Source of the DNA: Mucisphaera calidilacus
GTDB taxonomy: Bacteria; Planctomycetota; Phycisphaerae; Phycisphaerales; Phycisphaeraceae
Length of the DNA: 32,000 nt
Reading direction: 5' to 3'
Assembly: GCF_007748075.1 (NCBI RefSeq)
Contig: NZ_CP036280.1
Coordinates: forward strand, 1 to 32,000
The position numbers and the translations under genes were made by a program. Below are positions 1,486-32,000 of this stretch, one piece after another; position 1 is the first letter of the stretch; each line of letters opens with the position of its first letter. The notes beneath the pieces are model-generated. The model was not told where the DNA came from and made no database searches. It was given only the letters and a program-made list of their open reading frames with translations.

Positions 1486-1568
1486 TGGGCGAAGTAGGAT
1501 TCGAACCTACGTAGGCGTGAGCCAGCGGGTTTACAGCCCGCTCCATTTGGCCGCTCTGGCATTCGCCC
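1486..1568 (-). tRNA. tRNA-Tyr (anticodon GUA)
   Basis: 83-nt cloverleaf folded by hand on the minus strand. Acceptor GGGCGAA/TTCGCCC; anticodon stem GCGGG/CCCGC with loop CU-GUA-AA. Long variable arm (GGC-TCAC-GCC) typical of bacterial tRNA-Tyr. T arm GTAGG-TTCGAAT-CCTAC; discriminator A; CCA not encoded. Confidence 0.9.
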
Positions 1569-2673: not shown

Positions 2674-2707
2674 AGTGTCGGCGTGCGTCGACCGGGCACT
2701 TTTTTTT
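2674..2707 (+). terminator. Candidate Rho-independent terminator in the AT-rich spacer
   Basis: GC-rich hairpin AGTGTCGG (2674-2681) pairing with CCGGGCACT (2692-2700): 8 bp with one bulge and one G-U pair. It runs into a T8 tract (2700-2707). No annotated + strand CDS ends nearby; the HNH gene stops at 2368. Confidence 0.5.
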
Positions 2708-2763
2708 CAGGCCGTCCTGCCGGCAGCGGATCGACAGGGCCCAGTCAATTAGGGGAGCCTTCC

Positions 2764-3381: not shown

Positions 3382-3413
3382 TCTCGGAGCCGTTGCGCTG
3401 ATCGGAGGGGATC

Positions 3414-5669: not shown

Positions 5670-5736
5670 GCGGTCGATCGAAACCCAACACGACAACCGC
5701 TTGCCGCTGAGCGAGCCTAGTTGAGGGTTCATCACC

Positions 5737-6864: not shown

Positions 6865-6890
6865 GGCGGATTCTGTGGTTTAAACGCATG

Positions 6891-6918
6891 ACCCACGGGC
6901 CGGTCCCGTGGGTTTTTT
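6891..6918 (+). terminator. Rho-independent terminator after the pseudo-receiver gene
   Basis: Perfect 9-bp stem ACCCACGGG (6891-6899) / CCCGTGGGT (6905-6913), a 5-nt loop, then a T6 tract (6913-6918). It lies 27 nt after the stop codon. Confidence 0.85.
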
Positions 6919-6940
6919 CGTTCTCCGATACACTCTGGGC

Positions 6941-8455: not shown

Positions 8456-8457
8456 CG

Positions 8458-10152
8458 ATGCTGGTGATGACGGTGTTGCAGGGCCCGGACAAGGGTCGCC
8501 GGTTCGAGTTGCCGGACAACGAGCCGCAGATGATCGGCCGTTCGTCGGAGTCGCTGCCGTTGTCGGACCAGACGATCTCGCGGCGGCACGCGTCGCTGAC
8601 GCCTGACAATGGCAAGTGGGTGATCCACGACCTCAAGTCGTCGAACGGGACGTTTGTGAACGGCGTGCGTGTGACGAGTGCGCGGACGCTCCGGCCGGGT
8701 GATCAGGTGCGGACGGGGTCGACGCTGATGGTGTTCGGCGACGAGGGCGCGAAGGCGTTCCAGCACCAGATCCGCCTGTCGCGCAAGGGTGAGATGGATA
8801 TCTCGGTCGAGCACACGGTGGCGGCGAACGACGAGTCGATGATCATGGCGGTGCCGGAGCCGTCGCAGGCGGCGGAGTTCCAGTTGCGTGTGGTGTACGA
8901 GCTGGTGGCGTTGATCGGCTCGATGACGGAGAAGCGTGAGCTGCTGGAGAAGGTGATGGACGTCATCTTCGCCTACTTCAACGCGGACCGGGGTTTTATT
9001 CTGCTCAAGGATGGCGAGACGGAGTTGCTGGAGCCGGTGGTGATCCGTCGGAAGGACCCGGAGTCGACGCACGGCCGTGAGGTGGACCCGGCGGAGCGGC
9101 CGAGCACGTTCACGGTGAGTCGGACGATCGTGCAGTACGTCATGCGCAAGGGATTCGGGGTGTTGTCGGCGAACGCGATGACGGACCGCCGGTTCGCGAC
9201 GGGCGACTCGGTGCAGGCGTACAACATCCGGTCGACGATGTGCGTGCCGATCAAGTACAAGGGTCGGCTGTACGGCGTGATCCAGCTTGATTCGCAGGTG
9301 GCCAACTACACGTACACGGAGGATCAGCTGACGCTTCTGACGGCGATCGGTGTGCAGAGCGGTTTGGCGCTGGCGAACCTGGACCTGGTGGAGGCGCGTG
9401 TCCGGAGCGAGCGTCTGGCGGCGGTGGGCCAGACGGTGGCGTCGCTGTCGCACTCGATCAAGAACATCCTGCAGGGGATGCGTGGGGGCGCGGACGTGGT
9501 CGAGCTGGGGATGCGCAAGCAGAACCTGAAGGTGATCTCGGGCGGGTGGGAGATCGTGGCGCGGAATCAGGAGCGGATCTACGAGCTGGCGATGAACATG
9601 CTGGCTTATTCGAAGCAGCGCGAGCCGGAGCTGGAGATGGGCAATGTCGAGCCGCTGCTGCGTGAGCTGGTGTTGTTGATGCAGCAGCAGTACGACGTGA
9701 AGAAGGTGGCGTTGCTGACGGACTTCGCTGAGGACGTCCCGCCGGTGCCGATCGATGCTTCGGGGATGCACCAGGCGGTGTTGAATCTCCTGAGCAACGC
9801 GTTGGACGCGGTGGAGCCGGAGACGGGGGTGGTGGCGTTGAGCTGCACGTACGACGCGGAGGAGCCGGCGGTGCGGATCACGGTGGTGGACAATGGCGAG
9901 GGGATGACCAAGGCGACGCAGGCGCGTTTGTTCGAGCCGTTCCACTCGACCAAGGGGCTCAAGGGCACGGGTTTGGGGCTGGTGGTGACCAAGAAGATCA
10001 TCGAGGAGCACGGCGGCCGGATCCTGGTGGAGAGCACGCGTGAAGATGGGACGTCTTTCACGCTGGTGTTGCCGGTGCGTGACGTGCCGATCGAGTCGGC
10101 GGGGGACACCATGGGACCTTCGGATCCGACGACCGATTTCCCGGACGACTAG
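8458..10152 (+). CDS. FHA-GAF sensor histidine kinase (cytoplasmic)
   Basis: ATG lies 2 nt after the argH stop. FHA: IGRSSESLPLSDQTISRRHASLTPDNGKWVIHDLKSSNGTFVNG. GAF-like: LLEKVMDVIFAYFNADRGFILLKD...STMCVPIKYKGRLYGVIQLD. H-box VASLSHSIKNILQGM. HATPase VVDNGEGM...GTGLGLVVTKKIIEEHGGRILVES. Confidence 0.9.
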   Translation: MLVMTVLQGPDKGRRFELPDNEPQMIGRSSESLPLSDQTISRRHASLTPDNGKWVIHDLKSSNGTFVNGVRVTSARTLRPGDQVRTGSTLMVFGDEGAKAFQHQIRLSRKGEMDISVEHTVAANDESMIMAVPEPSQAAEFQLRVVYELVALIGSMTEKRELLEKVMDVIFAYFNADRGFILLKDGETELLEPVVIRRKDPESTHGREVDPAERPSTFTVSRTIVQYVMRKGFGVLSANAMTDRRFATGDSVQAYNIRSTMCVPIKYKGRLYGVIQLDSQVANYTYTEDQLTLLTAIGVQSGLALANLDLVEARVRSERLAAVGQTVASLSHSIKNILQGMRGGADVVELGMRKQNLKVISGGWEIVARNQERIYELAMNMLAYSKQREPELEMGNVEPLLRELVLLMQQQYDVKKVALLTDFAEDVPPVPIDASGMHQAVLNLLSNALDAVEPETGVVALSCTYDAEEPAVRITVVDNGEGMTKATQARLFEPFHSTKGLKGTGLGLVVTKKIIEEHGGRILVESTREDGTSFTLVLPVRDVPIESAGDTMGPSDPTTDFPDD

Positions 10153-18946: not shown

Positions 18947-19435
18947 ATGGGAGCCAGCCAGATCAAACGACGTGCCTTCACCCTCGTTGAGATTCTCATC
19001 GTGGTCGTGATTCTCGGCATTCTCGCTGCCGTCGTCATTCCTCAGTTCAGTGACGCAGCGGAGACCGCCAAGGCCAGCAGCCTGGTCTCGCAGCTGCAGA
19101 CGGTTCGGTCGCAGCTCGAGCTTTACATGATCCAGCACAACGGCAACTACCCGTCGCTGGGCAGCAACTGGAACCAGCTGACGCAGACGACCAGTGTTTC
19201 GGGCGCGACCTCGGGTTCGGACTTCGGTCCCTACCTGCAGAAGTCGCCGATCAACCCGTTCGAGAACTCGTCGAGTGTCGATGAGGGCAACAATGCTCTG
19301 GGCACGGCGGCGGCGGGCGTGGGCTGGGTCTACAACCCCGACAACGGGCAGATCAAGGCGGTCGTGAATGCCTCGAAGGCGACCACGCTCTCGCTCTCGA
19401 CCGAGGACGTCGCGACCTACAGCTCGACCGAGTAA
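18947..19435 (+). CDS. Prepilin-type N-terminal cleavage/methylation protein (GspG-like pseudopilin / type IV pilin)
   Basis: AGGAG RBS. Class III signal KRRAFTLVEILIVVVILGILAAVVIPQF (cleavage before F, Glu at +5). GspG-like stretch AKASSLVSQLQTVRSQLELYMIQHNGNYP. Ser/Thr-rich C-terminus. Followed by a strong terminator. Confidence 0.9.
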   Translation: MGASQIKRRAFTLVEILIVVVILGILAAVVIPQFSDAAETAKASSLVSQLQTVRSQLELYMIQHNGNYPSLGSNWNQLTQTTSVSGATSGSDFGPYLQKSPINPFENSSSVDEGNNALGTAAAGVGWVYNPDNGQIKAVVNASKATTLSLSTEDVATYSSTE

Positions 19436-19470
19436 ATCGTCGCCACCGATAACTCGACCCTCTCCGTTAT

Positions 19471-19497
19471 GGCCGCCCCACGTGGGCGGCCGTTTTT
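19471..19497 (+). terminator. Rho-independent terminator after the pilin gene
   Basis: 8-bp GC stem GGCCGCCC (19471-19478) / GGGCGGCC (19484-19491), a 5-nt loop, then G + T5 (19492-19497). Confidence 0.8.
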
Positions 19498-19557: not shown

Positions 19558-19848
19558 ATGGAGCAGCACCCCCAGGAGGCCGAACCCGTGTCAGCCCGAC
19601 GATCAACGCATCCGTCGTGGTACCTCGTCGCAGGCGTCGTGTCGCTCGGGGTCTGGATGGTGTGGTCGGACTCGGACACGCGTTCCTGGCCGGCGGATGC
19701 TCAGGCACTGCCTAACCCCGCGGAGCAGCGTCTCGAGCTGATCCGTGAGGTGCGTGCGCTGCGCGAGGCCGTGGAGCGGATCGAGCGCGATCTCGGCGGG
19801 TCCGAGAAGACAGATCGATCGGAGGGCGAGCATGCTCGGCTTCGGTAA
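19558..19848 (+). CDS. Hypothetical small single-pass membrane / coiled-coil protein
   Basis: 96-aa ORF from ATG 19558 (alternative GTG 19507). High GC3 like its neighbours. TM segment WYLVAGVVSLGVWMVW. C-terminal heptad-like AEQRLELIREVRALREAVERIERDL. Its 3' end overlaps the pilM start by 17 nt. No recognisable family. Confidence 0.4.
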   Translation: MEQHPQEAEPVSARRSTHPSWYLVAGVVSLGVWMVWSDSDTRSWPADAQALPNPAEQRLELIREVRALREAVERIERDLGGSEKTDRSEGEHARLR

Positions 19849-20869
19849 GAACCGTTACAGCCCGCTCGGGGTTGATTTAGCCAAGGATTGTGTCTGTCTG
19901 AGCCAGCTGCGTCGGGCCGGTGGCCGGGTCGTGCTCAGCGGTTTTGCCAGCTGGGCGTCCGAGGGCGAGGCGGGCTACGCCGGCGTCGCTGAGCAGGTCG
20001 TTCAGTCGCTGAAACGGGACCGCTTCTTGGGCAGGCGTGTGGTGGTTCGCGTGCCCGATCATCTTCTGAACATCAAGAACGTGCGTATCCCGACCCTCCC
20101 GGATGACGAGCTCGAAGAGGCCGTCCGCTGGGAGGCGGGCGAGCGGCTGAACATCAACCCCGACGAGAGCATTATCCGGTTCTACGACGCGGGCGAGGTG
20201 CGGCAGGGGAGCGAGACCCGGCGGGAGATCATTATTCTTGCGGCGCCCGCGCAGCCCCTGAACGAGCTGACCGAGGCCCTCGACGCCAACGGGCTTGAGG
20301 TGCTGGCGCTCGAGGCAGCGCCGACCATGCTCGCGCGTTTTCAGGGCTACATCGAGGAGAGTGTTTACGTCTCGGCGGGTGATGCCGAGGCCCCGCACGT
20401 CATCTTGCACATCGGGGCCGAGCACACCTGGGTGCTGATCGCGGACTGTGGGCGGCTGGTTTTCGTGCGGCAGATGCCGGTCGGTTCTCTCGATCTCGGC
20501 CAGCAGCAGCAGGCTCAGGCCTCGGCCGAGGAGCCGGAGCGGGCGACGTACGACCTCGACGACCCGGAGCCCAGGACGCAGGCCCGGCCGCGTGTTGACG
20601 TGGGTCAGGAGCTGGCGTTGTGTCTTCGGTACCACGGCGTGACGTTCCCCGGGCGTCGCCCCGAGACCGCGTGGCTCTTTGCGCCGGATGAGGTGCTTGC
20701 CGGCGTGGCCGACTCGATCAGCAGCCGCACGCACCTGGCGGTGATCAGTCCGGCGACGATCACGGAGGCGTTGCCCGACCTCAGCGGCGACACCGACGAG
20801 CCGCTGTCGCAGATCGCCCCCTCGCTGGCGCTGGCCATGAACTGGCCGGGCGGGAGGTTGGCGGCATGA
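19832..20869 (+). CDS. pilM: PilM-like actin-fold pilus assembly ATPase-like protein
   Basis: ATG 19832 follows GGAGGG (19821-19826). N-terminus LGVDLAKDCVCLSQL resembles the PilM GxDxG phosphate-1 region. About 345 aa. Directly upstream of PilN/PilO-like genes with a 4-nt overlap. Confidence 0.8.
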   Translation: MLGFGKNRYSPLGVDLAKDCVCLSQLRRAGGRVVLSGFASWASEGEAGYAGVAEQVVQSLKRDRFLGRRVVVRVPDHLLNIKNVRIPTLPDDELEEAVRWEAGERLNINPDESIIRFYDAGEVRQGSETRREIIILAAPAQPLNELTEALDANGLEVLALEAAPTMLARFQGYIEESVYVSAGDAEAPHVILHIGAEHTWVLIADCGRLVFVRQMPVGSLDLGQQQQAQASAEEPERATYDLDDPEPRTQARPRVDVGQELALCLRYHGVTFPGRRPETAWLFAPDEVLAGVADSISSRTHLAVISPATITEALPDLSGDTDEPLSQIAPSLALAMNWPGGRLAA

Positions 20870-21459
20870 GTGATCTGAACTTCCTCCCGTTGTCTTATCG
20901 CAGGGCTCGGCTGCGTCAGCGTGTGCGTCGGATCGAGATCGGCACGGTCATCCTGCTGGCGGCGTTGTTTGCTGCGGGTTGGGGTCAGCTCTGGACGCTG
21001 CGCACCCAGCTCGCCGAGCGTGTCGCCGGGGCCGAGGTGCTCGCCGATCAGGCGTTTCGGCTGCGCGACGAGCTGCTGGGGCTGGAGTCCGAGCGGCTTG
21101 AGCTGCACGAGCAGTCGCGGCTCTACCGGACGCTCGAACCCCGGTTGCGATTCAGCGACGCGCTGCGCATCCTTGCGGGCACCCTCCCGCCGGAGAGCGG
21201 CCTGGCCGATCTGGACGTCCGGCACCGCGACGACGCCTCGCCGCGTCTCGACCTGGGGCTGCGTGTGATCTGCGCCGACGACCGCCAGGTCGCCAGCGCC
21301 GTCGCCTCGCTCGCCCAGCACCCGATCTTCACAGGCATCGAGGTCCAGGCCGTGGTTCCGGTCGAGGAAGCGACGGGCCCGATGCGTGAGGTGAGTCTCG
21401 AAGCGACGATCGACCTGAACCGCCGGTTCACGCTGGTGACGGAAGGAGCCGCGCCGTGA
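20866..21459 (+). CDS. pilN: PilN-like bitopic pilus alignment protein
   Basis: Characteristic N-terminus MSDLNFLP, a basic stretch and a TM segment (IGTVILLAALFAAGW), then a coiled coil. ATGA overlap with pilM. Confidence 0.8.
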   Translation: MSDLNFLPLSYRRARLRQRVRRIEIGTVILLAALFAAGWGQLWTLRTQLAERVAGAEVLADQAFRLRDELLGLESERLELHEQSRLYRTLEPRLRFSDALRILAGTLPPESGLADLDVRHRDDASPRLDLGLRVICADDRQVASAVASLAQHPIFTGIEVQAVVPVEEATGPMREVSLEATIDLNRRFTLVTEGAAP

Positions 21460-22019
21460 GGGTTACGCTCCGCGATACCTGGCGTCTGATGGTCGCCGTC
21501 CCTGCGATGGCGCTGCTGTTTGTCGTGGGTGCCTGGCTGCCGCACAGTGCGAGCACCGGTGATCTTCAGCAGCGGCTTGATGACGCCAACCAGGCACACT
21601 CGTCACTCGATGCGCTGGAGGCTCAGGTCGCCCGCGCCCGCCGTGACATCGACGACCTCGCCGAGGCCTACCGCGACCGCAGCACCGGTCTGGTGCCGGA
21701 CATCGACCCCATGCCCGAGGTGATCGGGCGTATCGCTCGTCTCACCGAGGCGGCGGGTGTTGTCGATCACGAGCTGATGACGCTCGGCCAGGAGGAGGGC
21801 GAGGGCTACCGTGCCCAGCGATTCCGCCTGACGTTCTCGACCGGGTTCGAGGCCGCCTACGAGATCCTCGACGCGATCGAGCACCTGCACTACCTCGTCA
21901 ACGTTCGGTCGATGAACCTCACGCGTGACAGCGAGCAGGAGCGTCTGAGCGTGGCCCTTGAGCTGCTGGCCTACGCCCGCGTCTCCGGCGACGCCTCGGC
22001 CGCAGGAGATACGCCATGA
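21456..22019 (+). CDS. pilO: PilO-like bitopic pilus alignment protein
   Basis: GTG start overlaps the pilN stop (GTGA). TM segment (LMVAVPAMALLFVVGAW), coiled coil, and a ferredoxin-like C-terminus (FEAAYEILDAIEHLHYLVNVRSMNLTR). Confidence 0.7.
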   Translation: MRVTLRDTWRLMVAVPAMALLFVVGAWLPHSASTGDLQQRLDDANQAHSSLDALEAQVARARRDIDDLAEAYRDRSTGLVPDIDPMPEVIGRIARLTEAAGVVDHELMTLGQEEGEGYRAQRFRLTFSTGFEAAYEILDAIEHLHYLVNVRSMNLTRDSEQERLSVALELLAYARVSGDASAAGDTP

Positions 22020-22558
22020 ACAGCTGGTGGGACCAACTCGTCAGCAGTTACAAGGCCCAGCCGACCAAGGTGATCGCGCTGGCCGGCATGAGTGTCTTCG
22101 GGCTGCTGCTGTGGGGGCGACTGCTGCTGACCGACCCGCCACGCGTCGCGACGGCGGACCCCGAGCCGACGGTGAATCAGGCCGAGACTCGGTCTGCGGA
22201 AGACGCACGCCCGTCGGCCGAGTCGACCATCAAGCCCGAGTTGGTGGTCCCGGTGTCCCATAACGCGCCGCGCAACCTCTTCCAGGCCCGAGATGTGGCA
22301 TCAACCGGACCATCCGCATCGACCGGAGAAGAGTCACAGACGGATTCGGACGATAGCCCGAGCAGGACCATGATCCGCGAGCGCGCCCAGCAGCTGAGTC
22401 TGCAGGCCGTCGTGCTCGGCAGCGAGCCGCGTGCCGTGATCAACGGCACGACCGTGCGGCCCGGCCAGGCCATCGACGGATTCAAGCTGCTACGCGTCGG
22501 CAGGCGACACGCGGACCTCGAGATGCATGGCACGACCGTGCGGATCGGCCTGCCCTGA
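22016..22558 (+). CDS. PilP/GspC-like secretin-interacting inner-membrane protein
   Basis: ATGA overlap with pilO. N-terminal TM segment (VIALAGMSVFGLLLWGRLLL), a disordered linker, and a C-terminal beta-domain LSLQAVVLGSEPRAVINGTTVRPGQAIDGFKLLRV. Its position immediately before the secretin fits this role. Confidence 0.5.
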   Translation: MNSWWDQLVSSYKAQPTKVIALAGMSVFGLLLWGRLLLTDPPRVATADPEPTVNQAETRSAEDARPSAESTIKPELVVPVSHNAPRNLFQARDVASTGPSASTGEESQTDSDDSPSRTMIRERAQQLSLQAVVLGSEPRAVINGTTVRPGQAIDGFKLLRVGRRHADLEMHGTTVRIGLP

Positions 22559-22571
22559 GACGGGAGAAGTG

Positions 22572-24584
22572 ATGATCAACGAGCCATCCCAACCCTATCG
22601 CACGCTCCACCGCCTCGGCGGTGTCTGCCTGGCACTCGCCCTTGCTGCCGGCGCATCGGCGCAGGTGGACGCGCCCGGCGATGACGGGATCATCGACCTC
22701 ACCTCCGACAACGCCGCTGCTGACCTCGTGCCCGCGCTGAGCGTCACCGCGCTTGGTGAGATCGACCTGAACGTCCGCGACACCGAGATCGACACCGTGC
22801 TCAACCTCCTGAGCGAGCAGGCCCGCCACAACATCGTGGTCAGCCCGAACGTCCGCGGGACCATCTCGGCGAGTCTCTACGGCGTCACCTTCGACGAGGC
22901 GCTCGACAGCCTGCTTACGCCCAACGGCTTCCGCTACGTGCGCTCGGACAACTTCATCCACGTCTACACCGCCGAGGAGATGCGCGAGATCGAGGCGACG
23001 ACCAACAAGCCCGTCACGCGGATCATCCGGCTCGATTTCATCAGCTCGACCGACGCCCAGACCTTCGCCGAGCCGCTGCTCTCGGAGAACGGCCGTCTCG
23101 CCATCAGCAGCGAGGTGCCCGAGGGTTTTGAGGCGACCATCTCCGATGGCGGCGCGAACACGTACTCCCACGCCGACACGCTGATCGTCCACGACCGCCC
23201 CGAGCACGTCGAGAAGATCGTCGAGCTGCTCGAGGAGCTGGACCGCATGCCCGAGCAGGTCATGATCGAGGTCACGATCCTCCAGGCCAAGCTCAGCGAG
23301 AACAACGCGTTTGGCGTGGACTTCGCGATCCTCAGCGACATCTCGATCTCCGACGCCACCTCCCCGCTGGCCGCCGTCGACGAGTTGATCAGCGGCGACC
23401 TGGCCGCCGACTCGGCCGCGGCCATCACGAGCATCGCGGGCAACACGACCAACGGCGAATCGTCGGTCAAGCTCGGCGTGATCGGGGGCGACGCGGCGGT
23501 CTTCGTCCGTGCGCTCGAGAGCATCACCGACACGACGGTGATCTCGACGCCGAAGGTCGCAGTGCTCAACCGCCAGCGTGCGGTGGTGGATGCGACCGAG
23601 CAGCTGCCCTACATCTCGACGACCGAGAGCGAGATCTCCAGCACCGAGACGATCGAGACGATCGACGTCGGCACGCAGCTCATGGTCCGGCCGTTCATCA
23701 GTTCCGACGGGTACATCCGTCTTGAACTCAACCCCGTGCTCTCCGAAGGCAGCACCGAGCTGAGCCCGCTGGGCGTGATCCTGCCCAACACCTCGCGGCA
23801 GGCGCTTCAGACCAACGTCATGGTCCGCTCCGGGCAGACGGTGGTGCTGGGCGGTCTGTTCAAGGAGGACACCACCAACACGACCAACCAGGTGCCCTAC
23901 TTCGGGCGGATCCCCATATTGGGCAACGCCTTCAAGGGACGCGACGACAGCTCCGAGCGTGTCGAGATCATCTTCCTGATCAAGCCGACGATCGTCCGCG
24001 ACCGCGTGCTCGCGCACGCCGGCGAGGAGGCCCGCCAGGGCATCGAACGCATCCGGCTGGGCTCACGCAGCGGGCTGCTTCCCTTCTCGCGGCTGCGGAT
24101 GCTGCGCTCACACCTGGCCCGCGCCGAGCGATACGCCCGCGAGGGCGACAGTGAGCGCGCTCTCTGGCACACCAACATCGCCTTGTCGCTCGAACCGATC
24201 TCGGCCGAAGCGCTCAACCTCAAGGGCAGCCTGATCGGTCGGCGGCTGCAGGAACGCGAACGCGGCCTGCTCGACGGTCCTGTTCGGCGTGCGCTGCAGT
24301 CGGCGATCGAGACGTTCAATCAGCCGGAGCCGACGCCCGAGCCGGCCGCCACGCCGCCCGCGTCGTCGGAACCCGAAGACCGGGCTTTGCCGCGCGGCAG
24401 CGACCGGATGGTGAGCGGGCAGGCACGCGCCAACCGCAGCCTCTGGCTGACGCCTCAGGAGGATCGGCCCGGTCCGGTTCAGCAGGGTGAGGCGCCGGAC
24501 CAGGACAACTGGGTGAGCGCGATGATCGACGAGATCCTTGGCAGGGCGGACCGCCAGCAGGCCGCCGTGGAGGTCAAGCCTTGA
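22572..24584 (+). CDS. pilQ: Secretin (PilQ/GspD family) with long C-terminal extension
   Basis: ATG 22572 follows GGGAGAAG. Signal peptide LGGVCLALALAAGASAQV. Secretin core TIDVGTQLMVRPFISSDGYIRLELNP...QTNVMVRSGQTVVLGGLFKED...VPYFGRIPILGNAFKG...IIFLIKPTIV. About 195 further residues follow the core. Confidence 0.9.
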   Translation: MINEPSQPYRTLHRLGGVCLALALAAGASAQVDAPGDDGIIDLTSDNAAADLVPALSVTALGEIDLNVRDTEIDTVLNLLSEQARHNIVVSPNVRGTISASLYGVTFDEALDSLLTPNGFRYVRSDNFIHVYTAEEMREIEATTNKPVTRIIRLDFISSTDAQTFAEPLLSENGRLAISSEVPEGFEATISDGGANTYSHADTLIVHDRPEHVEKIVELLEELDRMPEQVMIEVTILQAKLSENNAFGVDFAILSDISISDATSPLAAVDELISGDLAADSAAAITSIAGNTTNGESSVKLGVIGGDAAVFVRALESITDTTVISTPKVAVLNRQRAVVDATEQLPYISTTESEISSTETIETIDVGTQLMVRPFISSDGYIRLELNPVLSEGSTELSPLGVILPNTSRQALQTNVMVRSGQTVVLGGLFKEDTTNTTNQVPYFGRIPILGNAFKGRDDSSERVEIIFLIKPTIVRDRVLAHAGEEARQGIERIRLGSRSGLLPFSRLRMLRSHLARAERYAREGDSERALWHTNIALSLEPISAEALNLKGSLIGRRLQERERGLLDGPVRRALQSAIETFNQPEPTPEPAATPPASSEPEDRALPRGSDRMVSGQARANRSLWLTPQEDRPGPVQQGEAPDQDNWVSAMIDEILGRADRQQAAVEVKP

Positions 24585-24589
24585 AGACG

Positions 24590-25795
24590 ATGGCACGACA
24601 GTTTGGCGTTCTCTTCGCCGTCGCGCTCGCGGCGGTCTTCGCGATCGGCTGCGAATCGACGCGTGACGTCGATCAGCACAAGGTCGAGGCGGACGCCCGC
24701 TGGTGGGACCTGCGTGGCAACATGATCCTCGAGCAGGCCCAGTACCAGTTCGACAACAGCGAGCTGGATCAGGCCGAGGCCACGCTCCACGAAGCGATGC
24801 GCATCAGCCCGGAGAACCCGAGGCTGCTGATCCTCGCCGGGCGCATCGCGCTCGAACGCGGGGAGCTGGAGCGTGCCGCGATCGCGCTGCGGTCCGCGGC
24901 CGAGGCCGACCCGCAGGACGCGGTGGCTCACTACTACCTGGGCATCGTCGAGCAGCGTTGGCAGCGTACTCAGGCCGCTCGCGATCACTACGCCCGAGCC
25001 GCCGAGCTGGACCCCGACAACCTCGAGTACCTGCTGGCTCATGCCGAGTCGGAGGTTGCGCTGGGCAACGACGCTCAGGCGGTCGCGCTGATGGAGCAGC
25101 GGCTGGGCTATTTCGCTCACCACGCGGCGCTGCACCACGCGCTGGGCAGGGCGATGGTTCTTGTGGATCGTCGGGTCGAGGCGCTCGATCACCTGCACGA
25201 GGCCGCGATCCTCGACCCCGACAACCTCACCTACCGCACCGACCTCGCGTTCGAACTCGTCGACAGCGGCCAGCCCGAGGAGGCCGGACGCATCCTCGCC
25301 GAGCTCCTGAAGGACCCGCGCTACGCCGAGCGGCACGACCTGCGACGCGCCTACGCCCGCGCCTGCGAGGAGGCCAGCCGGTGGGCCGAGGCCCGGCGGC
25401 TCTACCGCGACCTTTGCCAGAAGCAGGACCCGCTCGCTCAGGACCTGCTGGGTCTGGCGCGCATGAGCTGGCAGCTCGGCGACGCCACCGGTGCCGAACG
25501 CGCCGCGGCCCGCGTGATCGAGCGTCACCCCAACAACAGCGCCGCCATGATCTGGCTCGGGCTGGCGGCCCTCGAACGCGACGACGCGCTCCAGGCCAGC
25601 CGCTGGTTCGAGATGGTCACCGCCCTCACGCCCGAGGACGCCCAGGGGTGGGCGCTCTACGGAACCTCGCTCCAGCGGCTCGGCAGGCTGCCGGAGGCCG
25701 TCGAGGCTTATCGCAAAGCCCACGAAATCGACCCCGGCAACCCGCAGATCCGCGCTCTGCTGAGCCAGGTCCGGAGGCCGGCGAACCCCGCGTGA
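24590..25795 (+). CDS. TPR-repeat lipoprotein (PilF/PilW/Tgl-like candidate pilotin)
   Basis: ATG 24590 (the ORF-track TTG at 24581 overlaps the secretin stop). Lipobox MARQFGVLFAVALAAVFAIGC. At least 8 TPR-like units (e.g. AHYYLGIVEQRWQRTQAARDHYARAAELDPDN; GWALYGTSLQRLGRLPEAVEAYRKAHEIDPGN). Confidence 0.85.
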   Translation: MARQFGVLFAVALAAVFAIGCESTRDVDQHKVEADARWWDLRGNMILEQAQYQFDNSELDQAEATLHEAMRISPENPRLLILAGRIALERGELERAAIALRSAAEADPQDAVAHYYLGIVEQRWQRTQAARDHYARAAELDPDNLEYLLAHAESEVALGNDAQAVALMEQRLGYFAHHAALHHALGRAMVLVDRRVEALDHLHEAAILDPDNLTYRTDLAFELVDSGQPEEAGRILAELLKDPRYAERHDLRRAYARACEEASRWAEARRLYRDLCQKQDPLAQDLLGLARMSWQLGDATGAERAAARVIERHPNNSAAMIWLGLAALERDDALQASRWFEMVTALTPEDAQGWALYGTSLQRLGRLPEAVEAYRKAHEIDPGNPQIRALLSQVRRPANPA

Positions 25796-25822: not shown

Positions 25823-27325
25823 ATGAGTACCCCCGCCCCCAACGATCGGCAGCCGTACGTCGCGACGACGCGTGAGCGCCTGCGCCGGCTCGGCATCCCC
25901 GTGGTCGATCTCGCGATCGACGGGCACACGGTCACCCACGCCATCGACTGCCCCGTGTCCAGCACCACGCTCGATCACCTGCTCGCCGCGTCGGTCATCC
26001 GCGAACTCACCGAGACCCCGCTGCGCTTCTGCCCCATCACTGACACGCTCTACGCCATCAACATCAGCCCCGAGCAGCCGACCGACACGCTCGCGGTCGC
26101 GTTGATCAGCCACGGCGACCATGCCAGCACGCGCTCGGAGGCTCATCGGATCGAGCAGCTGCTCCGCTGGTGGAGCGAGGACACCCAGCAGCTCGAGGTG
26201 GCCCGGCACACGGCGCAGCAGAACGGCCACGAGCTGGCCCTCGCCTACGAGGAGCTCAGTCTCATCGACCACCTCACCCAGCACAGCGAGCTGCGCGAGT
26301 CCACCGAGAACCGGCTGGACGAGGCGGTGCAGGACCTGCGCGAGGTCGCGCGGCTGCGTTTCCTCGCCCTGCACCTCGCCGACGACCGGCCGCGCCTCAA
26401 CGTGCTCCGCGGCAAGACCTTCTTTCCCGAGGACTCGGTCACGAGCATCCGCTCCATCCGCGCCGCCGGCGACTGGCTGCTCGCCCGGTTGGGCAACACG
26501 CCCGGCGTGACGCGATTCGCGCCCGAGCTGCACGAGGGGCTCTCGGCGCTGGGCACCGAGATCCTCGCGATGAAGATCCGCCACCGCGATCAGGTCCTCG
26601 GCGTGCTGTACGGCGCCGACCGCTTTGACGGCCAGCCCTTCGACGCCACAGACATGGCACGCTTCGAGTCGCTGGGCACGAGCATCTCCGTGTTCCTCAA
26701 CAACGCGCTGCTCTTCACCGAGATGCACGGCCTGTTCGTCGGGACCCTCAGCGCCCTGTCCACCGCGATCGACGCCAAGGACGCCTACACCCACGGGCAC
26801 TCGCAGCGTGTCGCCTCGCTCACACGCCAGCTCGCCAGGGCCGCCGGGTTCGGCGTCGTCGACACCGAACGCCTCTACCGCTCGGCGCTCGTGCACGACC
26901 TGGGCAAGATCGGCGTGCCCGAGGCCATCCTGACCAAGGAGGGCAAGCTGACTCGCGAGGAGTTCGATGCCATCAAGCGACACCCGCAGATCGGCGCACG
27001 GATCCTCCGCGACATCGAGTCGATGACCGAGCTGATCCCCGGCGTGCTCTCGCACCACGAGCGTTGGTCCGGCGGCGGCTACCCCCAGGGCATCGCCGGC
27101 CGCGCGATCCCCTTCGAGGGACGCGTCATCGCGCTGGCCGACAGCTACGACGCCATGCGCTCCAAACGCAGCTACCGCGACGCCATGCCCCACGAGCAGG
27201 CCATGGAGGAGGTCCGGCGAGGCCGCGGCACGCAGTTCGAGCCGGAGTTGGCCGACGCCTTCCTGACCCTCGACTTCGACGCCTATAACGACCCGCAGCA
27301 GGACAGCACGCGGCGGGCCGCCTGA
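25823..27325 (+). CDS. HD-GYP domain protein (candidate c-di-GMP phosphodiesterase) with N-terminal GAF-like sensor region
   Basis: HD-GYP core HGHSQRVASL...LVHDLGKIGVPEAIL...HHERWSGGGYPQGIAG...ALADSYDAM. GAF-like stretch MKIRHRDQVLGVLYGADRFDGQPFD. Confidence 0.9.
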   Translation: MSTPAPNDRQPYVATTRERLRRLGIPVVDLAIDGHTVTHAIDCPVSSTTLDHLLAASVIRELTETPLRFCPITDTLYAINISPEQPTDTLAVALISHGDHASTRSEAHRIEQLLRWWSEDTQQLEVARHTAQQNGHELALAYEELSLIDHLTQHSELRESTENRLDEAVQDLREVARLRFLALHLADDRPRLNVLRGKTFFPEDSVTSIRSIRAAGDWLLARLGNTPGVTRFAPELHEGLSALGTEILAMKIRHRDQVLGVLYGADRFDGQPFDATDMARFESLGTSISVFLNNALLFTEMHGLFVGTLSALSTAIDAKDAYTHGHSQRVASLTRQLARAAGFGVVDTERLYRSALVHDLGKIGVPEAILTKEGKLTREEFDAIKRHPQIGARILRDIESMTELIPGVLSHHERWSGGGYPQGIAGRAIPFEGRVIALADSYDAMRSKRSYRDAMPHEQAMEEVRRGRGTQFEPELADAFLTLDFDAYNDPQQDSTRRAA

Positions 27326-27333
27326 GAGACGCC

Positions 27334-27678
27334 ATGAAAATCAACCTCGAACAACGCGACGACATCGGGCTGATCACCATTACCGGCGAGGTCAGCGAGT
27401 CCGACTCCGACCTGATCCGCTCCTGCGTGCTCGAACACATCGAGGCCGGCGGGCACGACGTCGTCCTGGACATGGTCGCCGTCGAAGGCCTCGACTCCCG
27501 CGCCCTCGAGTCGCTGCTGGTGATCAACGAGATGATCGCCGAGCGTCTGGGTCGGCTGGTGCTGGGCGATATCTCGGAGACCGTCGAACGCATCCTCCAC
27601 GCCACACGCCTGAACCGGACCCTCGAGCACCACCCGACGGTCGACGCCGCCATCAAGGCGATCCGGGAGGCAGCATGA
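27334..27678 (+). CDS. STAS-domain protein (anti-sigma-factor-antagonist fold)
   Basis: 114 aa: IGLITITGEVSESDSDLIRSCVLEHIEAGGHDVVLDMVAVEGLDSRALESLLVINE...LVLGDISETVERILHATRLNRTL. Starts 8 nt after the HD-GYP stop; its stop overlaps the ATPase start (ATGA at 27675-27678). Confidence 0.85.
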   Translation: MKINLEQRDDIGLITITGEVSESDSDLIRSCVLEHIEAGGHDVVLDMVAVEGLDSRALESLLVINEMIAERLGRLVLGDISETVERILHATRLNRTLEHHPTVDAAIKAIREAA

Positions 27679-29408
27679 ACACCAGCGACACCAGCCAACG
27701 CAGCGCGCGCCCCCTGCGCATCGGCGACGTCCTGCTCGCGCAGGGTCTCATCGCGCAGGAGCAGATCGACGCGGCCCTCGAGCACCAGCGCAACGAGGGG
27801 GGCGGCAAGCTCCTCGGCCAGGTGCTCATCGAGCTGGGCATGGTCACTGAGCAGCAGACGCTCGAAGCCGTCGCCGAGGCACTCGACCTGCCCTTCGCAC
27901 GCCTTGATAACGCGATGGTCGACCCGCACCTCAACGAGCTGCTGCCCCAGAGCTTCCTCGACGAGCACGTCGCCGTCCCGATGTTCCTCGTCAAGGACCT
28001 GCTGACCCTCGCCGTGAGCGAGCCGACCGACATGTTCCTGCTCGAGGAGGTCGAACGCCTCACCGGCAAGACCGCGCAGCTCGTGGTCGCCACCGAGCAG
28101 GACATCCGCGACGCTCAGCGGTATCTCCAGGCCGGCGCCGCCTCCTCGTCCCTGGACGACCTTGTCCGGGACATGGACTACACCGACCCCGAGGACGCGG
28201 CCAGCGTCGCCGACATCACGGCCGAGGCGATCGCCGACGGCAGCTCGCCGGTGATCAAGCTGGTCAACCACATCCTCTTCCAGGCGGTCCGCGAGGGCGC
28301 CTCCGACATCCACATCGAGCCGGGCGATCAGTCGCTACGCGTTCGCTTCCGCATCGACGGCCGACTCACCGCGACGATCACTCCGCCCGCGCCGATGCAC
28401 GCTGCGATCACCAGCCGCATCAAGATCATGGCGGGCATGGACATCTCCGAGAAGCGCATCCCTCAGGACGGCGGCATCGCGATCCAGTGCGACGGCCGGC
28501 CGGTCGACCTGCGTGTCTCGACCATGCCCGGGCGCTACGGCGAGAAGGTTGTCATCCGAATCATCGACGCGCGCAATGCGATGGTCGACCTCGAGCTGCT
28601 CGGCCTGAGCCCGCGCATGCTCCGGCGCTACATGGACGTGATCACCCAGCCCAACGGCATCGTGCTCGTCACCGGGCCGACGGGCTCGGGCAAGTCCACG
28701 ACGCTCTACGCCACCCTCCGCCACATCGTCGACGCCACCCGCAACATTTCGACGGTGGAGGACCCCGTCGAGTACGGGCTCGATGGCGTCAACCAGTTCC
28801 AGGTCAACGAGAAGACCGGCTTCACCTTCTCCACCGCACTGCGCGCGCTGCTCCGCCAGGACCCCGACATCATCATGCTCGGCGAGATCCGTGACGCCGA
28901 GACCGCGCGCATCGCCACCCAGGCGGCGCTCACCGGCCACATGGTCTTCTCCACGCTGCACACCAACGATTCGCCTTCCGCCGTCACGCGGCTGATCAAC
29001 ATCGGCGTCGAGCCTTATCTCATCGCCGCGTCGGTCCGTGCCGTGCTCGCCCAGCGACTCGTGCGCAAGCTCTGCACCAGCTGCCGCGAGAAGCAGCCCA
29101 TCGAGTACGAGCACAAGCGCATCCTTGAGCGACTCGGCGTCGAGGTCGACGAGAACACCGAGTTCTACCAGCCCGTCGGCTGCCGCAAGTGCCGCGAGAC
29201 CGGCTACAAGGGACGGCTCGGCATCTACGAGATCTACATCCCCACGGACGAGGCGCTCGACGCCATCAGCCGCGGGGCCGCGCTCCAGGAGCTCCGCACG
29301 CTCGCGCGCGGCAGCGACGGCTACATCACCCTCAGCGAGGACGGACTGGCCAAGGTGCAGGCCGGCGAGACCACGCTGAGCGAACTGCTCACCGCGACCG
29401 CAGCCTGA
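27675..29408 (+). CDS. pilB: PilB/MshE/GspE-family secretion ATPase with N-terminal MshEN (T2SSE_N) domain
   Basis: Walker A GPTGSGKSTT. Asp box and Walker B IIMLGEIRD. His box ALTGHMVFSTLHTN. Tetracysteine CTSC...CRKC. N-terminus LRIGDVLLAQGLIAQEQIDAALEHQ. Confidence 0.95.
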   Translation: MNTSDTSQRSARPLRIGDVLLAQGLIAQEQIDAALEHQRNEGGGKLLGQVLIELGMVTEQQTLEAVAEALDLPFARLDNAMVDPHLNELLPQSFLDEHVAVPMFLVKDLLTLAVSEPTDMFLLEEVERLTGKTAQLVVATEQDIRDAQRYLQAGAASSSLDDLVRDMDYTDPEDAASVADITAEAIADGSSPVIKLVNHILFQAVREGASDIHIEPGDQSLRVRFRIDGRLTATITPPAPMHAAITSRIKIMAGMDISEKRIPQDGGIAIQCDGRPVDLRVSTMPGRYGEKVVIRIIDARNAMVDLELLGLSPRMLRRYMDVITQPNGIVLVTGPTGSGKSTTLYATLRHIVDATRNISTVEDPVEYGLDGVNQFQVNEKTGFTFSTALRALLRQDPDIIMLGEIRDAETARIATQAALTGHMVFSTLHTNDSPSAVTRLINIGVEPYLIAASVRAVLAQRLVRKLCTSCREKQPIEYEHKRILERLGVEVDENTEFYQPVGCRKCRETGYKGRLGIYEIYIPTDEALDAISRGAALQELRTLARGSDGYITLSEDGLAKVQAGETTLSELLTATAA

Positions 29409-29427: not shown

Positions 29428-30651
29428 ATGCCCGATTTCACCTTCAAAGCCAGGACCAGCGCGGGGCAGATCGACACCGGCATCCTCGACGCCGACTCGC
29501 TCGCCCAGGCCGCCGCTCGCCTGCGCCAGCGCGGGCTCTTCCCTGTCTCCATCAACCCCGCGCGCGACGGGCAGCGCAGGCAGAACACCAAGCCCACCAG
29601 GCCGCAGGGGAGCGTCAAACGCGCGGATGTGATCGCCTTCGCCAACGAGCTCGCCATCCTGCTCGACGCCGGCGTCATCATGCGTGACGCCCTCGCCTGC
29701 GCGACCGGCCAGGCGCGGAACGATGCCATGGGCGCCGTCCTCAAGGACATCCAGGACCACGTGCAGTCGGGCGGGACGCTCTCGGACGCCCTCGCCCAGC
29801 GGCCCGACGTCTTCCCCACGCTCATGGTCAGCATGATCAGCGCGTCCGAGGCCTCGGGCACCCTGTCCGACATGCTCATGCGTGTCGCCGACTACATGGA
29901 ACAGGAACAGAAGATCCAGCGCACCGTGCGCTCGGCGATGACCTACCCGCTGGTGATGTTCGTCGCGACGTTCACGATCACGGCCTTCCTCATCGGCTTC
30001 GTCCTGCCCCGTTTCGCCTCGATCTACGCCAGCCGCGGGGCCGACCTGCCCCTGCCCACACAACTGCTGATCGGCATCAGCACCACCTTCACGAGCTACT
30101 GGCCCCACATGCTCGCCGGCGCGATCGCCCTCGGGATCGGGGCCTACTTCTACTTCCGCTCGACCCACGGCCGGCACCTCATCGACACCGCCAAACTCGG
30201 CCTGCCGCTCTTCGGGCCGCTCTTCAACAAGCTCTACCTCACACGCTCGTTCCGCACGATGAGCGTCATGCTCGACGCCGGCGTGCCGCTGCTCGATCTC
30301 ATCGGGATCACGCGCAACATCACGACCAACCACCACATCGCACGCCTCTGGGACGACGTCGCTGATCAGGTCAAGCAGGGCGGCAACATCTCGACCGTGC
30401 TGCGCGATTCGCCGTATATCTCGGGTTCGATTGCGCAGATGATCGCATCGGGCGAGCAGGCGGGGCGTGTCGGCGACATCATGGCACGCGTCGCGCAGCG
30501 CACCGAGGAAGAGTTCGAGCGAGGGGTCAAGGCGATGACGCAGTTCGTGGAGCCCGCCATGATCGCGGCGCTCGGCCTTGTCGTCGGCTTCGTCGCCATC
30601 GCGCTGCTGCTGCCGATCTTCTCGGTTGGCAAGGTCGTCTCCGGCGGGTGA
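29428..30651 (+). CDS. pilC: PilC/GspF-family inner-membrane platform protein
   Basis: 407 aa with two T2SSF repeats (ELAILLDAGVIMRDAL...SMISASEASGTL and FRTMSVMLDAGVPLLDLI...QMIASGEQAGRV) and three TM blocks. Confidence 0.95.
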   Translation: MPDFTFKARTSAGQIDTGILDADSLAQAAARLRQRGLFPVSINPARDGQRRQNTKPTRPQGSVKRADVIAFANELAILLDAGVIMRDALACATGQARNDAMGAVLKDIQDHVQSGGTLSDALAQRPDVFPTLMVSMISASEASGTLSDMLMRVADYMEQEQKIQRTVRSAMTYPLVMFVATFTITAFLIGFVLPRFASIYASRGADLPLPTQLLIGISTTFTSYWPHMLAGAIALGIGAYFYFRSTHGRHLIDTAKLGLPLFGPLFNKLYLTRSFRTMSVMLDAGVPLLDLIGITRNITTNHHIARLWDDVADQVKQGGNISTVLRDSPYISGSIAQMIASGEQAGRVGDIMARVAQRTEEEFERGVKAMTQFVEPAMIAALGLVVGFVAIALLLPIFSVGKVVSGG

Positions 30652-30751
30652 TCCAAACCGTAATCCAACACGTTTCTTACCGAAGATTCACGCGTCCTCC
30701 TCTGCTAGTTTCCGTCGCTCGGGAACCCCCAAACCACAGAGGAGATTCAGC

Positions 30752-32000
30752 ATGAAGTCCGCCATCACCCTGACCGCTGCCGCCTGCGCTCTCGCGCTCA
30801 ACACGTCCGTTGCCGACGCCTGGACCATGGGCGTCCTCACCGACACCCAGGGCGCCGGCCAGTACCCGCTCGTGTCGACGCGCCTGATGGACCCGGTCGT
30901 CGATCGTTTCGTCAACCACCACCAGATCGACATGCTCATGTCCGTCGGCGACCTCTCCGACCGTGGCACGCAGGCCGAGTTCGATCTCTGGAACCAGCAC
31001 GCGGCGCCGCTCTACGACGCCAACATCCCCATGTACATCGCCCGTGGCAACCACGACGTCAAGACCGAGAGCGAGATCCCGGCCATCGACCCGCTCTTCG
31101 GGCCCGTCACGCTCCGCGGCACCGAGCTCTGGGACGCCAACATCCAGGTCCCCGCCAACCCGACCGTCACGCCCGGCCCCGGCGCGAGCTACACCTTCGC
31201 CTACGAGAACACCTTCTTCATCAACATCGACGTCTACGGCACCGCGCCCTCCGAGCTGATCGGCTGGCTGACGCAGGTCGCCCTTCCCACCGCGGCGCTG
31301 TCCGGTGCCGAACACAAGTTCCTGTTCCAGCACGAGCCCTGGTTCGGCAAGGCCCGCTCGGGCATCCTCGCCGCCGACCCCGCTACCGAGCTGGAGCTGC
31401 TGACCGGGATCGCCCAGGCCGGCGTCTCGACCATCTTCGTCGGGCACGACCACCAGTACTCGCGCTCGGTCGCACTCGACCCCTCTGGCGACGTCCTGCT
31501 CAACCACATCGTCACCGGCTCCAACGCCGAGAAGTACTACCGCCTCGAAGAGGCACCCGGTCCCAACGAGGGCCAGGGCATTCAGATCAACGACCGCGTC
31601 GGCTACTCGATCGTCGAGATCGACGGCCCGCTCGTCAGCTTCACCCACTACGACTCCTTCGCGCCCAGCCCTCTGGACACCGAGCCCTGGACGCCCGAGT
31701 GGACCGTCGCCGACCGCTTCACCTTCGCTTCCAACGGCGACCAGTTCTTTGTCGAGGCCGACGCGTCCTTCGCCGGCCTCGGGAGCACCAGCCCCAACGG
31801 CACGGTCGCCACGATCCTCGACGGCATCAACGAGACCTACGAGACGCTGACCACCGATCCGGATCCCGGCGAGACACCGCAGACCTTCACCCTCGGCCAG
31901 ATCGTCAACTTCGCCTGGATCGATGCCACCGACGAAACCCTCTCCGACATCCTCGTTCTCAACGGACTGGCCGACGAGGCCAACGGCATCGCGGCCGACG
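30752..32000 (+). CDS. Secreted calcineurin-like metallophosphoesterase (3' end beyond window)
   Basis: Absent from the ORF track because no stop falls within the window; I translated it by hand from ATG 30752, which follows AGAGGAGA. Signal peptide MKSAITLTAAACALALNTSVADA. Motifs GDLSDRG, GNHD, GHDH. The frame stays open to base 32000. Confidence 0.8.
   Translation, partial: MKSAITLTAAACALALNTSVADAWTMGVLTDTQGAGQYPLVSTRLMDPVVDRFVNHHQIDMLMSVGDLSDRGTQAEFDLWNQHAAPLYDANIPMYIARGNHDVKTESEIPAIDPLFGPVTLRGTELWDANIQVPANPTVTPGPGASYTFAYENTFFINIDVYGTAPSELIGWLTQVALPTAALSGAEHKFLFQHEPWFGKARSGILAADPATELELLTGIAQAGVSTIFVGHDHQYSRSVALDPSGDVLLNHIVTGSNAEKYYRLEEAPGPNEGQGIQINDRVGYSIVEIDGPLVSFTHYDSFAPSPLDTEPWTPEWTVADRFTFASNGDQFFVEADASFAGLGSTSPNGTVATILDGINETYETLTTDPDPGETPQTFTLGQIVNFAWIDATDETLSDILVLNGLADEANGIAAD

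Follow-up and report, generated by a model that had tools for sequence, protein, structure and literature searches.

In Xanthomonas and Pseudomonas, HD-GYP enzymes have a bearing on movement by type IV pili. The described motors closest to the one considered here are ATPases of the PilB/GspE family that carry an N-terminal MshEN region: MshE of Vibrio cholerae, PilF of Thermus thermophilus, PilB of Myxococcus and Chloracidobacterium, and PA14_29490 of Pseudomonas aeruginosa. How the binding of cyclic diguanylate (c-di-GMP) to these MshEN-type ATPases becomes pilus assembly is a standing question; the ligand barely alters the ATPase activity of MshE in vitro, and the authors of that work suggested that external factors are required (PMC5013675). 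A precedent for a small protein partner is found with another ATPase, MlaF, which is bound and licensed by the STAS protein MlaB through its alpha1-alpha3 face, where Thr52, the equivalent of the phospho-site, is central (PMC7367683). The present analysis concerns a 32-kb stretch of DNA (the window) from Mucisphaera calidilacus Pan265 (Phycisphaerae, Planctomycetota), in which the genes for an HD-GYP-type phosphodiesterase, a STAS protein and a PilB/GspE-type ATPase stand in a row.

The three genes lie on the plus strand within a tightly packed operon that runs from a prepilin gene to PilC. The HD-GYP open reading frame (ORF; 25823-27325, 500 amino acids) is separated by an 8-nt spacer, gagacgcc, from the STAS ORF (27334-27678, 114 amino acids), whose stop codon overlaps the start of the ATPase ORF (27675-29408, 577 amino acids) in an ATGA at 27675-27678. 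These ORFs and both junctions had been reported in a first-pass annotation of the same DNA and proved exact when the window coordinates were rechecked. We regard it as an evenly balanced proposition that the triad is the core of a local module through which c-di-GMP and a STAS protein control a type IVa-pilus-like extension ATPase.

Conservation of the gene order

The neighbourhood of the ATPase was followed in the best 80 of 544 ATPase relatives, one genome per species, with ATPases 52-71% identical to that of the window. Nearly all of these loci are labelled Phycisphaerae, Phycisphaerales or Tepidisphaerales and they include the complete genome of Fontivita pretiosa; the few metagenome-assembled genomes with other taxon labels may reflect binning noise. 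Presence and position of each gene were counted with hidden Markov models over the loci that could be assessed. Of 77 loci, spanning Phycisphaerales and Tepidisphaerales, 76 have STAS as the gene immediately before the orthologous ATPase, and HD-GYP was identified upstream of STAS in 73 of 75. Further upstream, a CheY-like receiver precedes HD-GYP in 67 of 72 loci and a PAS-HisKA-HATPase kinase precedes the receiver in 63 of 70. The canonical cassette is kinase, receiver, HD-GYP, STAS and ATPase, and the order of persistence at the ATPase is STAS, HD-GYP, receiver and kinase. No curated NCBIfam family beyond superfamily level was found for the kinase, receiver, HD-GYP or STAS of this cassette. 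In the reverse test, a metagenome scan seeded with the STAS family, 64 of 65 assessable loci had the ATPase as the next gene downstream, and 57 of 64 had HD-GYP as the next gene upstream. The triad recurs in about 140-150 independent loci, far beyond chance.

The adjacency pointed out in the first-pass annotation, for which a random neighbourhood in relatives had been considered, is conserved in both sets of loci, and the three genes form a functional unit that has been kept. The view that HD-GYP and STAS were inserted upstream of the ATPase does not hold: the class inherited the order from its ancestor, and Mucisphaera carries a reduced form of it, without the PAS-histidine kinase and the CheY-like receiver, which are also absent from its closest relatives (L001 and L002). 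A reduced cassette, not an insertion, is concluded because most relatives carry the kinase and the receiver and the window holds no orthologue of either, its signalling block at 2683-10152 included. Random neighbourhood and recent insertion were both rejected, as the gene order goes back to the ancestor of two orders in the class. The signalling block itself comprises an HTH-receiver regulator (2683-3381), an HDOD-histidine kinase (3414-5669), a receiver-GAF protein (5737-6864) and an FHA-GAF-histidine kinase (8458-10152).

The junction between HD-GYP and STAS has a median gap of 3 nt and is an overlap in 35 of 73 loci, and the one between STAS and the ATPase has a median gap of 11 nt, with overlap in 17 of 76. 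The matched stoichiometry that had been deduced from the ATGA in the window was over-read, the STAS/ATPase overlap being kept in just this minority of loci.

Eight STAS-ATPase loci lack HD-GYP (L025, L089, L096, L100, L103, L112, L121 and L147). Their STAS proteins fall into at least five groups with 32-56% mutual identity, except for the close pairs L096/L100 and L121/L147, and for six of the eight the nearest relative is HD-GYP-bearing rather than HD-GYP-less, the exceptions given being L112 and the L121/L147 pair. From these STAS sequences, the pattern suggests that HD-GYP was lost several times independently while STAS and ATPase stayed linked, and such losses in separate STAS lineages would tie STAS most tightly to the ATPase. 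At L025 kinase, receiver and HD-GYP are all gone, yet STAS overlaps the ATPase start by 4 nt. No locus with HD-GYP and ATPase and without STAS was seen among those examined; L039 has only a frameshifted STAS, which together with its split kinase gene suggests assembly errors. Two further loci depart from the common order. At L026 an ATPase-PilC pair (ATPase 5974-7680) adjoins an Asx-tRNA synthetase gene and the cassette is absent, and at L119 kinase, receiver, HD-GYP and STAS (4501-4836) are followed by minus-strand genes, with no adjacent ATPase. The two could be halves of the same kind of split operon. STAS is the most persistent neighbour of the ATPase, yet it can also stay with the phosphodiesterase.

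Some other variants were observed. Metagenome loci L096 (4067-4501) and L100 (1496-1882) have lost the kinase and HD-GYP and carry a divergent CheY-like receiver directly before STAS-ATPase. These receivers score about 118-120 bits, where typical orthologues reach about 200, and the arrangement suggests that a receiver can act on STAS or on the ATPase without the phosphodiesterase. Fontivita pretiosa (L037, 10778-13504) has a second, shorter GspE-like ATPase of 400 amino acids and a second PilC-like gene a few kb past the operon. In both L032 and L034 the ATPase gene is followed by PilC only after 3-4 kb, implying an insertion.

Proteins of the triad

All large ORFs of the window were scanned with Pfam and NCBIfam. 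The ATPase, a putative pilus extension motor of the hexameric PilB/GspE type (T2SSE, 1e-134), scores 590.8 on the PilB model TIGR02538 (cutoff 675.65) and 571.2 on the GspE model TIGR02533 (cutoff 630.25); judged by these scores it is clearly of the PilB/GspE family and is assigned to neither equivalog. Its residues 15-68 (27717-27878, plus strand) form a MshEN-type, putatively c-di-GMP-binding motif region, recognised by the MshE-related c-di-GMP motif model NF053729 with 54.2 bits (cutoff 38). The Fontivita orthologue scores 63.7, the curated cutoff is exceeded in both orders, and the region is conserved in an alignment of the ATPase orthologues.

The MshEN consensus consists of two tandem 24-residue motifs, (R/K/L)LGxx(L/V/I)(L/V/I)xxG(L/V/I)(L/V/I)xxxxLxxxLxxQ, with a 5-residue spacer. 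Compared with V. cholerae MshE (5HTL), motif I (RIGDVLLAQGLIAQEQIDAALEHQ) is canonical, with two conservative Leu-to-Ile changes, and retains Arg9, Gly11, Gly18 and Gln32, matching the c-di-GMP-contacting residues of MshE (PMC5013675). Motif II (LLGQVLIELGMVTEQQTLEAVAEA) keeps LLG, LI and G and has Val for Leu58; its Leu-Leu-Gly start is like that of the GSPII-B domain of T. thermophilus PilF, whose 6 nM binding of c-di-GMP needs no arginine (PMC11731258). On these motifs, binding of c-di-GMP by the N-terminus of the ATPase is likely but not certain, and it would be a direct reason for a c-di-GMP hydrolase gene next door.

The current annotation of the STAS protein is 'anti-sigma factor antagonist' only. 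The protein matches PF01740 (1.2e-16) and TIGR00377 (56.8 bits, cutoff 53.45), and its sequence matches in the PDB were four anti-sigma antagonists. The AlphaFold2 (AF2) model (predicted local distance difference test, pLDDT, 92.6) is ordered b1-b2-a1-b3-a2-b4-a3-a4, which is the full SpoIIAA topology, with the C-terminal helix at residues 103-113. The closest structures found with Foldseek were RsfB, SpoIIAA, TM1442 and RsbV (template-modelling score, TM, 0.75-0.86, with RsfB and SpoIIAA at 0.84-0.86), and several of the closest were solved bound to serine kinases, as RsfB-UsfX, SpoIIAA-SpoIIAB and RsbV-RsbW.

Conservation was assessed in 157 STAS orthologues, of which 153 are distinct; the first 77 are 24-63% identical to the window protein. 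Thr91-Arg92-Leu93 (codons 27604-27612), at the end of alpha3 in the AF2 model, is invariant, and Asp54, Ser55 (codon 27496-27498) and Glu59 are each kept in 155. When mapped on the model the conserved residues cluster on the alpha2/alpha3 face. The candidate phospho-serine context GLDSRALESL proposed from the window sequence agrees with the alignment and the model: helix alpha2 begins with Ser55, and in the alignment this residue falls on the serine in 'MDSAGL' of TM1442, the phospho-site position of that protein, phosphorylation of Ser55 itself being a prediction. Arg92 is replaced by Gly or His in the aligned solved antagonists (TM1442 'THL', 4QTP 'TGL'), and its invariance here suggests a family-specific partner. 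A word-based search with the single STAS sequence gave itself and one relative; a profile built from the locus-derived orthologues gave at least 1321 clusters. The top 120 of these are all stand-alone proteins of 111-114 amino acids, with no natural fusion of STAS to T2SSE or HD-GYP among them, and their named members all belong to Phycisphaerales or Tepidisphaeraceae.

In the HD-GYP protein the Pfam domains HD_5 (6e-35), HD (1e-20) and GAF_3 (4e-07; 31 bits, cutoff 27) were identified. Its AF2 model (pLDDT 82.5) comprises a PAS-like domain (residues 11-95), a coiled-coil helix (100-153), a GAF domain (161-267), a second long helix and the HD-GYP domain (326-481), and was matched by Foldseek to PmGH (over both domains), PA4781 and c-di-GMP-bound DvhD. 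The catalytic motifs had been described as intact, and so they were found, being also invariant in 58 orthologues (H326, H358, D359, K362, H387, H411, H412, E413, G419, Y420, P421, D440 and D443). In an alignment with PmGH (4MCW) and V-cGAP3 (5Z7C) the metal ligands are kept; the third-metal ligand of PmGH, Glu185, is Tyr in the window protein, so the metal site is probably binuclear. The predicted activity is hydrolysis of c-di-GMP, with cyclic GMP-AMP (cGAMP) as a possible other substrate or a lack of activity as alternatives; the best PDB sequence match is the cGAMP-specific V-cGAP3.

The N-terminal PAS-like domain had no Pfam match in four orthologues. Orthologues in the nearest genomes of the Mucisphaera clade are annotated with 393-401 amino acids and start about 100 codons later, leaving out the part that corresponds to window positions 25823-26120. 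These annotations may be truncated, since AF2 folds residues 11-95 as a confident PAS-like domain, or the clade may be losing the domain.

Proposed control of the motor and its alternatives

From the gene order, domains, residues and conservation described above we infer binding and hydrolysis of c-di-GMP, protein contacts and a direction of regulation, as follows. The ATPase would sense c-di-GMP through its N-terminal MshEN motif, and the HD-GYP enzyme, gated by its own PAS-like and GAF sensors, would be a dedicated local c-di-GMP sink whose activity sets the ligand-bound fraction of the ATPase and hence pilus assembly. The STAS protein would be a dedicated partner of the ATPase, perhaps also a bridge to the phosphodiesterase, licensing or blocking the motor. 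It would dock through its alpha2/alpha3 face (Asp54-Ser55, Leu58-Glu59 and Thr91-Arg92-Leu93), and phosphorylation of Ser55 by a kinase encoded elsewhere would be an optional switch for its release. The PAS-histidine kinase and CheY-like receiver would be an extra input in most relatives, lost in Mucisphaera. In its strict form, with STAS as a dedicated subunit or regulator of a PilB-type motor and with the c-di-GMP occupancy of MshEN set locally and read out only through the presence or phospho-state of STAS, the proposal is held tentatively, at clearly less than an even chance.

Several observations weigh against this scheme. Motif II is diverged, with Thr for Leu54 in Mucisphaera and Ala for the c-di-GMP-bonding terminal Gln61, and the spacer before it has 7 residues against the canonical 5, which together make the affinity for c-di-GMP uncertain. 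No diguanylate cyclase was identified in the window or within ±10 kb in three relatives with independently annotated long contigs; a crude scan for GG[DE]EF flagged ORFs in four 6-kb genome flanks, as motif matches only. In fold, the STAS protein is nearest to antagonists that partner with GHKL serine kinases (TM 0.84-0.86) and far from MlaB (TM 0.53-0.59). Ser55 is Gly in 2 of the 157 orthologues, both keeping the full gene context, so phospho-control cannot be universal. At L119 STAS remains with HD-GYP and the ATPase is elsewhere. Finally, a mirror-tree comparison, weak and exploratory, gave STAS a partial r of 0.18 with the HD-GYP catalytic domain (permutation p ~0.007), slightly stronger than the 0.10 with MshEN.

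STAS might instead mainly switch the HD-GYP phosphodiesterase on and off, the ATPase being affected indirectly through c-di-GMP. Such control has precedents in the STAS-type proteins HsbA and SiaC, which act on the diguanylate cyclases HsbD and SiaD (PMC5085249, PMC7647112). Overlap is commoner at the HD-GYP/STAS junction (35 of 73) than at the STAS/ATPase junction, and L119, with STAS next to HD-GYP and no adjacent ATPase, points the same way; set against them are the eight HD-GYP-less loci, where STAS and ATPase stay linked in several distant STAS lineages and, in L025, still overlap. The mirror-tree correlation of STAS is highest with the HD-GYP catalytic domain, but the effect is small, and no HD-GYP and ATPase locus without STAS was seen, that of L039 being frameshifted. 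We consider a switch acting mainly on HD-GYP unlikely.

A different alternative concerns the output and not the logic of the module: the machine could be a type II secretion system (T2SS), with the cassette controlling, according to c-di-GMP, the secretion of proteins such as polysaccharide-degrading enzymes. The ATPase, platform and secretin score about equally on the GspE/GspF/GspD and PilB/PilC/PilQ models, all below equivalog cutoffs, which leaves room for it, and the other genes of the operon, all on the plus strand, speak on both sides. At its head (18947-19435) is a PulG/T2SSG-type prepilin (Pfam N_methyl 4.6e-07, T2SSG 8.4e-05), a likeness in favour of a T2SS; L001 has an N_methyl gene in the equivalent slot. 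Next comes a terminator-like hairpin (19469-19493, plus strand; 10-bp stem with 8 G-C pairs and a T-run, a consensus match only), a candidate attenuator ahead of the assembly genes. A hairpin directly after a single prepilin and before pilM is the classic major-pilin layout, which lets the pilin be expressed strongly while read-through reaches the assembly genes, and it argues for a pilus.

The presence of PilM, PilN and PilO as separate genes, instead of GspL and GspM, also argues against a T2SS. The PilM-like gene (19745-20869; PilM_2 2e-06) has orthologues in relatives with precomputed PilM_2 matches, and the PilO-like gene (21456-22019; PilO 2.2e-04) is matched by PilO in relatives too. 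Between them, the PilN-like gene (20866-21459) was assigned by position and by orthology, confirmed with phmmer for L001; it has no Pfam match in the window and its orthologues match PilN weakly. The PilP/T2SSB-like gene that follows (22016-22558) has a weak T2SSB match (1.4e-03) in a slot conserved in relatives, and this match in the PilP slot would suit a T2SS. An outer-membrane secretin of the PilQ/GspD kind (22527-24584; Secretin 3.3e-41 plus STN and N0 domains) precedes a tetratricopeptide repeat (TPR) protein (24581-25795; multiple TPR families; type_IV_pilW 68 bits, below cutoff), a PilW/PilF/Tgl-like accessory whose gene directly follows the secretin in relatives also. After the triad, the last operon gene encodes the PilC/GspF platform protein (29428-30651; T2SSF 6e-58).

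MshEN domains that bind c-di-GMP occur on T2SS ATPases too (PMC5013675; PMC12943098), and the Mucisphaera window showed no PilT gene. Against a T2SS, L117 has a gene for a true retraction ATPase of the PilT family (415 bits, cutoff 319) placed between those for the motor ATPase and PilC, matches to a second ATPase that resemble this case occur in seven other relatives, and M. calidilacus itself forms a polar matrix or fimbriae (PMC8882080). A type IVa-pilus-like machine with a class-conserved operon is favoured, and a T2SS is judged improbable.

The first-pass annotation had found the window devoid of anti-sigma kinases, PP2C phosphatases and sigma factors and had supposed that STAS may act on the ATPase or on HD-GYP rather than on transcription. 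The Pfam and NCBIfam scans agree on the absence, and no RsbW-type or GHKL serine kinase, PP2C or sigma factor was identified within ±10 kb in the three long-contig contexts. This absence fits a STAS protein whose target would be the ATPase, the HD-GYP enzyme or both, and not a sigma factor; given a fold nearest to kinase-binding antagonists, a remote partner-switch kinase may nonetheless exist. Planctomycete genomes are rich in genes for partner switching. The protein at 8458-10152, with FHA, GAF and HATPase domains, was examined as an RsbW-type kinase and rejected: it is the one HATPase protein of the window that has no Pfam HisKA match, but its normal H-box places it with histidine kinases of the AtoS/ZraS type. 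An ordinary anti-sigma antagonist of a dispersed network (RsbW-type kinase, PP2C phosphatase and sigma factor all encoded elsewhere), whose level reports pilus-gene expression and whose output is transcriptional, would agree with the TIGR00377 anti-sigma-antagonist match, with the full SpoIIAA-type fold and its best matches to antagonists solved with kinases, and with the phospho-site serine of 155 of the 157 orthologues, but is quite unlikely in view of the lack of partners in the window and in the three long-contig contexts, the fixed slot between HD-GYP and ATPase with overlapping or nearly overlapping junctions across two orders, the invariant Arg92 where solved antagonists have Gly or His, with the family-specific partner that it suggests, and the two Ser55-to-Gly variants in unchanged gene context.

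The same 12-gene operon was identified on long contigs of relatives from independent gene calls and precomputed Pfam matches. It ends at PilC, as the genes downstream differ between relatives; for the same reason a secreted calcineurin-like metallophosphoesterase ORF (30749-32000, plus strand; Metallophos 2.7e-11), which has a signal-like N-terminus and runs off the end of the window, is probably unrelated to the operon. No structured RNA was found in the operon by Rfam and no sigma-70-like promoter consensus in 18.2-31 kb. At the other end of the window dnaA (1-1458) is the first gene, which places the window near the replication origin. It is followed by a tRNA gene (1486-1568, minus strand), located between dnaA and an HNH-endonuclease ORF (1517-2368) whose listed start overlaps the tRNA. 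Up to about 16 kb the GC skew has strongly positive values, after which it drops to near zero and, from about 21 kb, is negative.

Comparison with described systems

Full-text searches found no literature linking STAS proteins to PilB, GspE or type IV pili, and neither a survey of HD-GYP proteins nor a genomic review of Phycisphaerae mentions an arrangement of HD-GYP, STAS and ATPase. The remark that this is not a textbook arrangement is borne out, no description having turned up in these searches. The parts are all of known kinds; their combination, above all a STAS fixed before a PilB-type ATPase, appears undescribed. With a receptor ATPase, a hydrolase and a switch protein encoded in one operon, the locus offers a concrete three-protein candidate system of local c-di-GMP signalling. 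If the proposed control is correct, the external factor that ATPases of the MshE type seem to need for their response to c-di-GMP would have a candidate in the STAS protein. This protein would represent a new class of type IV pilus regulators, in which a partner-switch protein has a motor and not a sigma factor as its output, and would extend the reach of STAS and partner-switch proteins from transcription, transporters and cyclases to a motor of the secretion superfamily. For the Phycisphaerae, which are abundant and poorly studied polysaccharide degraders, this proposal is the first on how their pili are regulated.

The HD-GYP protein has the GAF and HD-GYP architecture of PmGH and keeps its metal ligands save that at Glu185 (Tyr here), and differs from PmGH-type enzymes by an additional PAS-like domain at its N-terminus and by a coiled-coil helix. 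Unlike the RpfG-dependent control of pili in Xanthomonas, the locus shows direct operon linkage of the enzyme to the receptor ATPase, with no GGDEF/PilZ relay.

The STAS protein resembles SpoIIAA, RsbV and RsfB in fold, in length, in the serine at the N-terminus of alpha2 and in matching TIGR00377. In contrast to them it is encoded in a pilus operon, has Arg in place of Gly or His in its Thr-Arg-Leu, and is found with no cognate partners in the window or the three long-contig contexts. A STAS-type switch in c-di-GMP signalling, with a non-sigma output and a bearing on the choice between motile and sessile life, is known from the HsbA-HsbD and SiaC-SiaD systems of P. aeruginosa (PMC5085249, PMC7647112). 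Those systems have diguanylate cyclases as targets and their own kinase and PP2C phosphatase in the locus (HsbR; SiaA/SiaB), whereas here the neighbouring enzyme is an HD-GYP protein, the surroundings contain neither a serine kinase nor a phosphatase, and the pilus ATPase is the most persistent neighbour.

MlaB is a single-domain STAS protein that serves MlaF as an obligate accessory subunit. With MlaB-MlaF the locus shares a small stand-alone STAS protein encoded in the operon of an ATPase, with conserved residues on the corresponding helical face. MlaF is an ABC-transporter ATPase and the partner here would be a hexameric AAA+ ATPase of the PilB type; MlaB is a minimal STAS lacking the C-terminal strand and helix, whereas the window protein is of the full-length SpoIIAA type (TM to MlaB 0.53-0.59). 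The likeness to MlaB is one of functional analogy and not of membership.

The closest likeness of the motor is to the MshEN ATPases, with which it shares the PilB/GspE-type ATPase and an N-terminal region recognised by the curated MshEN motif model. To our knowledge the known MshEN systems have no operon-encoded enzyme or STAS partner, and literature searches gave none either. The ATPase described here differs from them by a motif II without the terminal Gln and by its longer spacer, and by the genes for a phosphodiesterase and a STAS protein that stand immediately upstream of it throughout the class.

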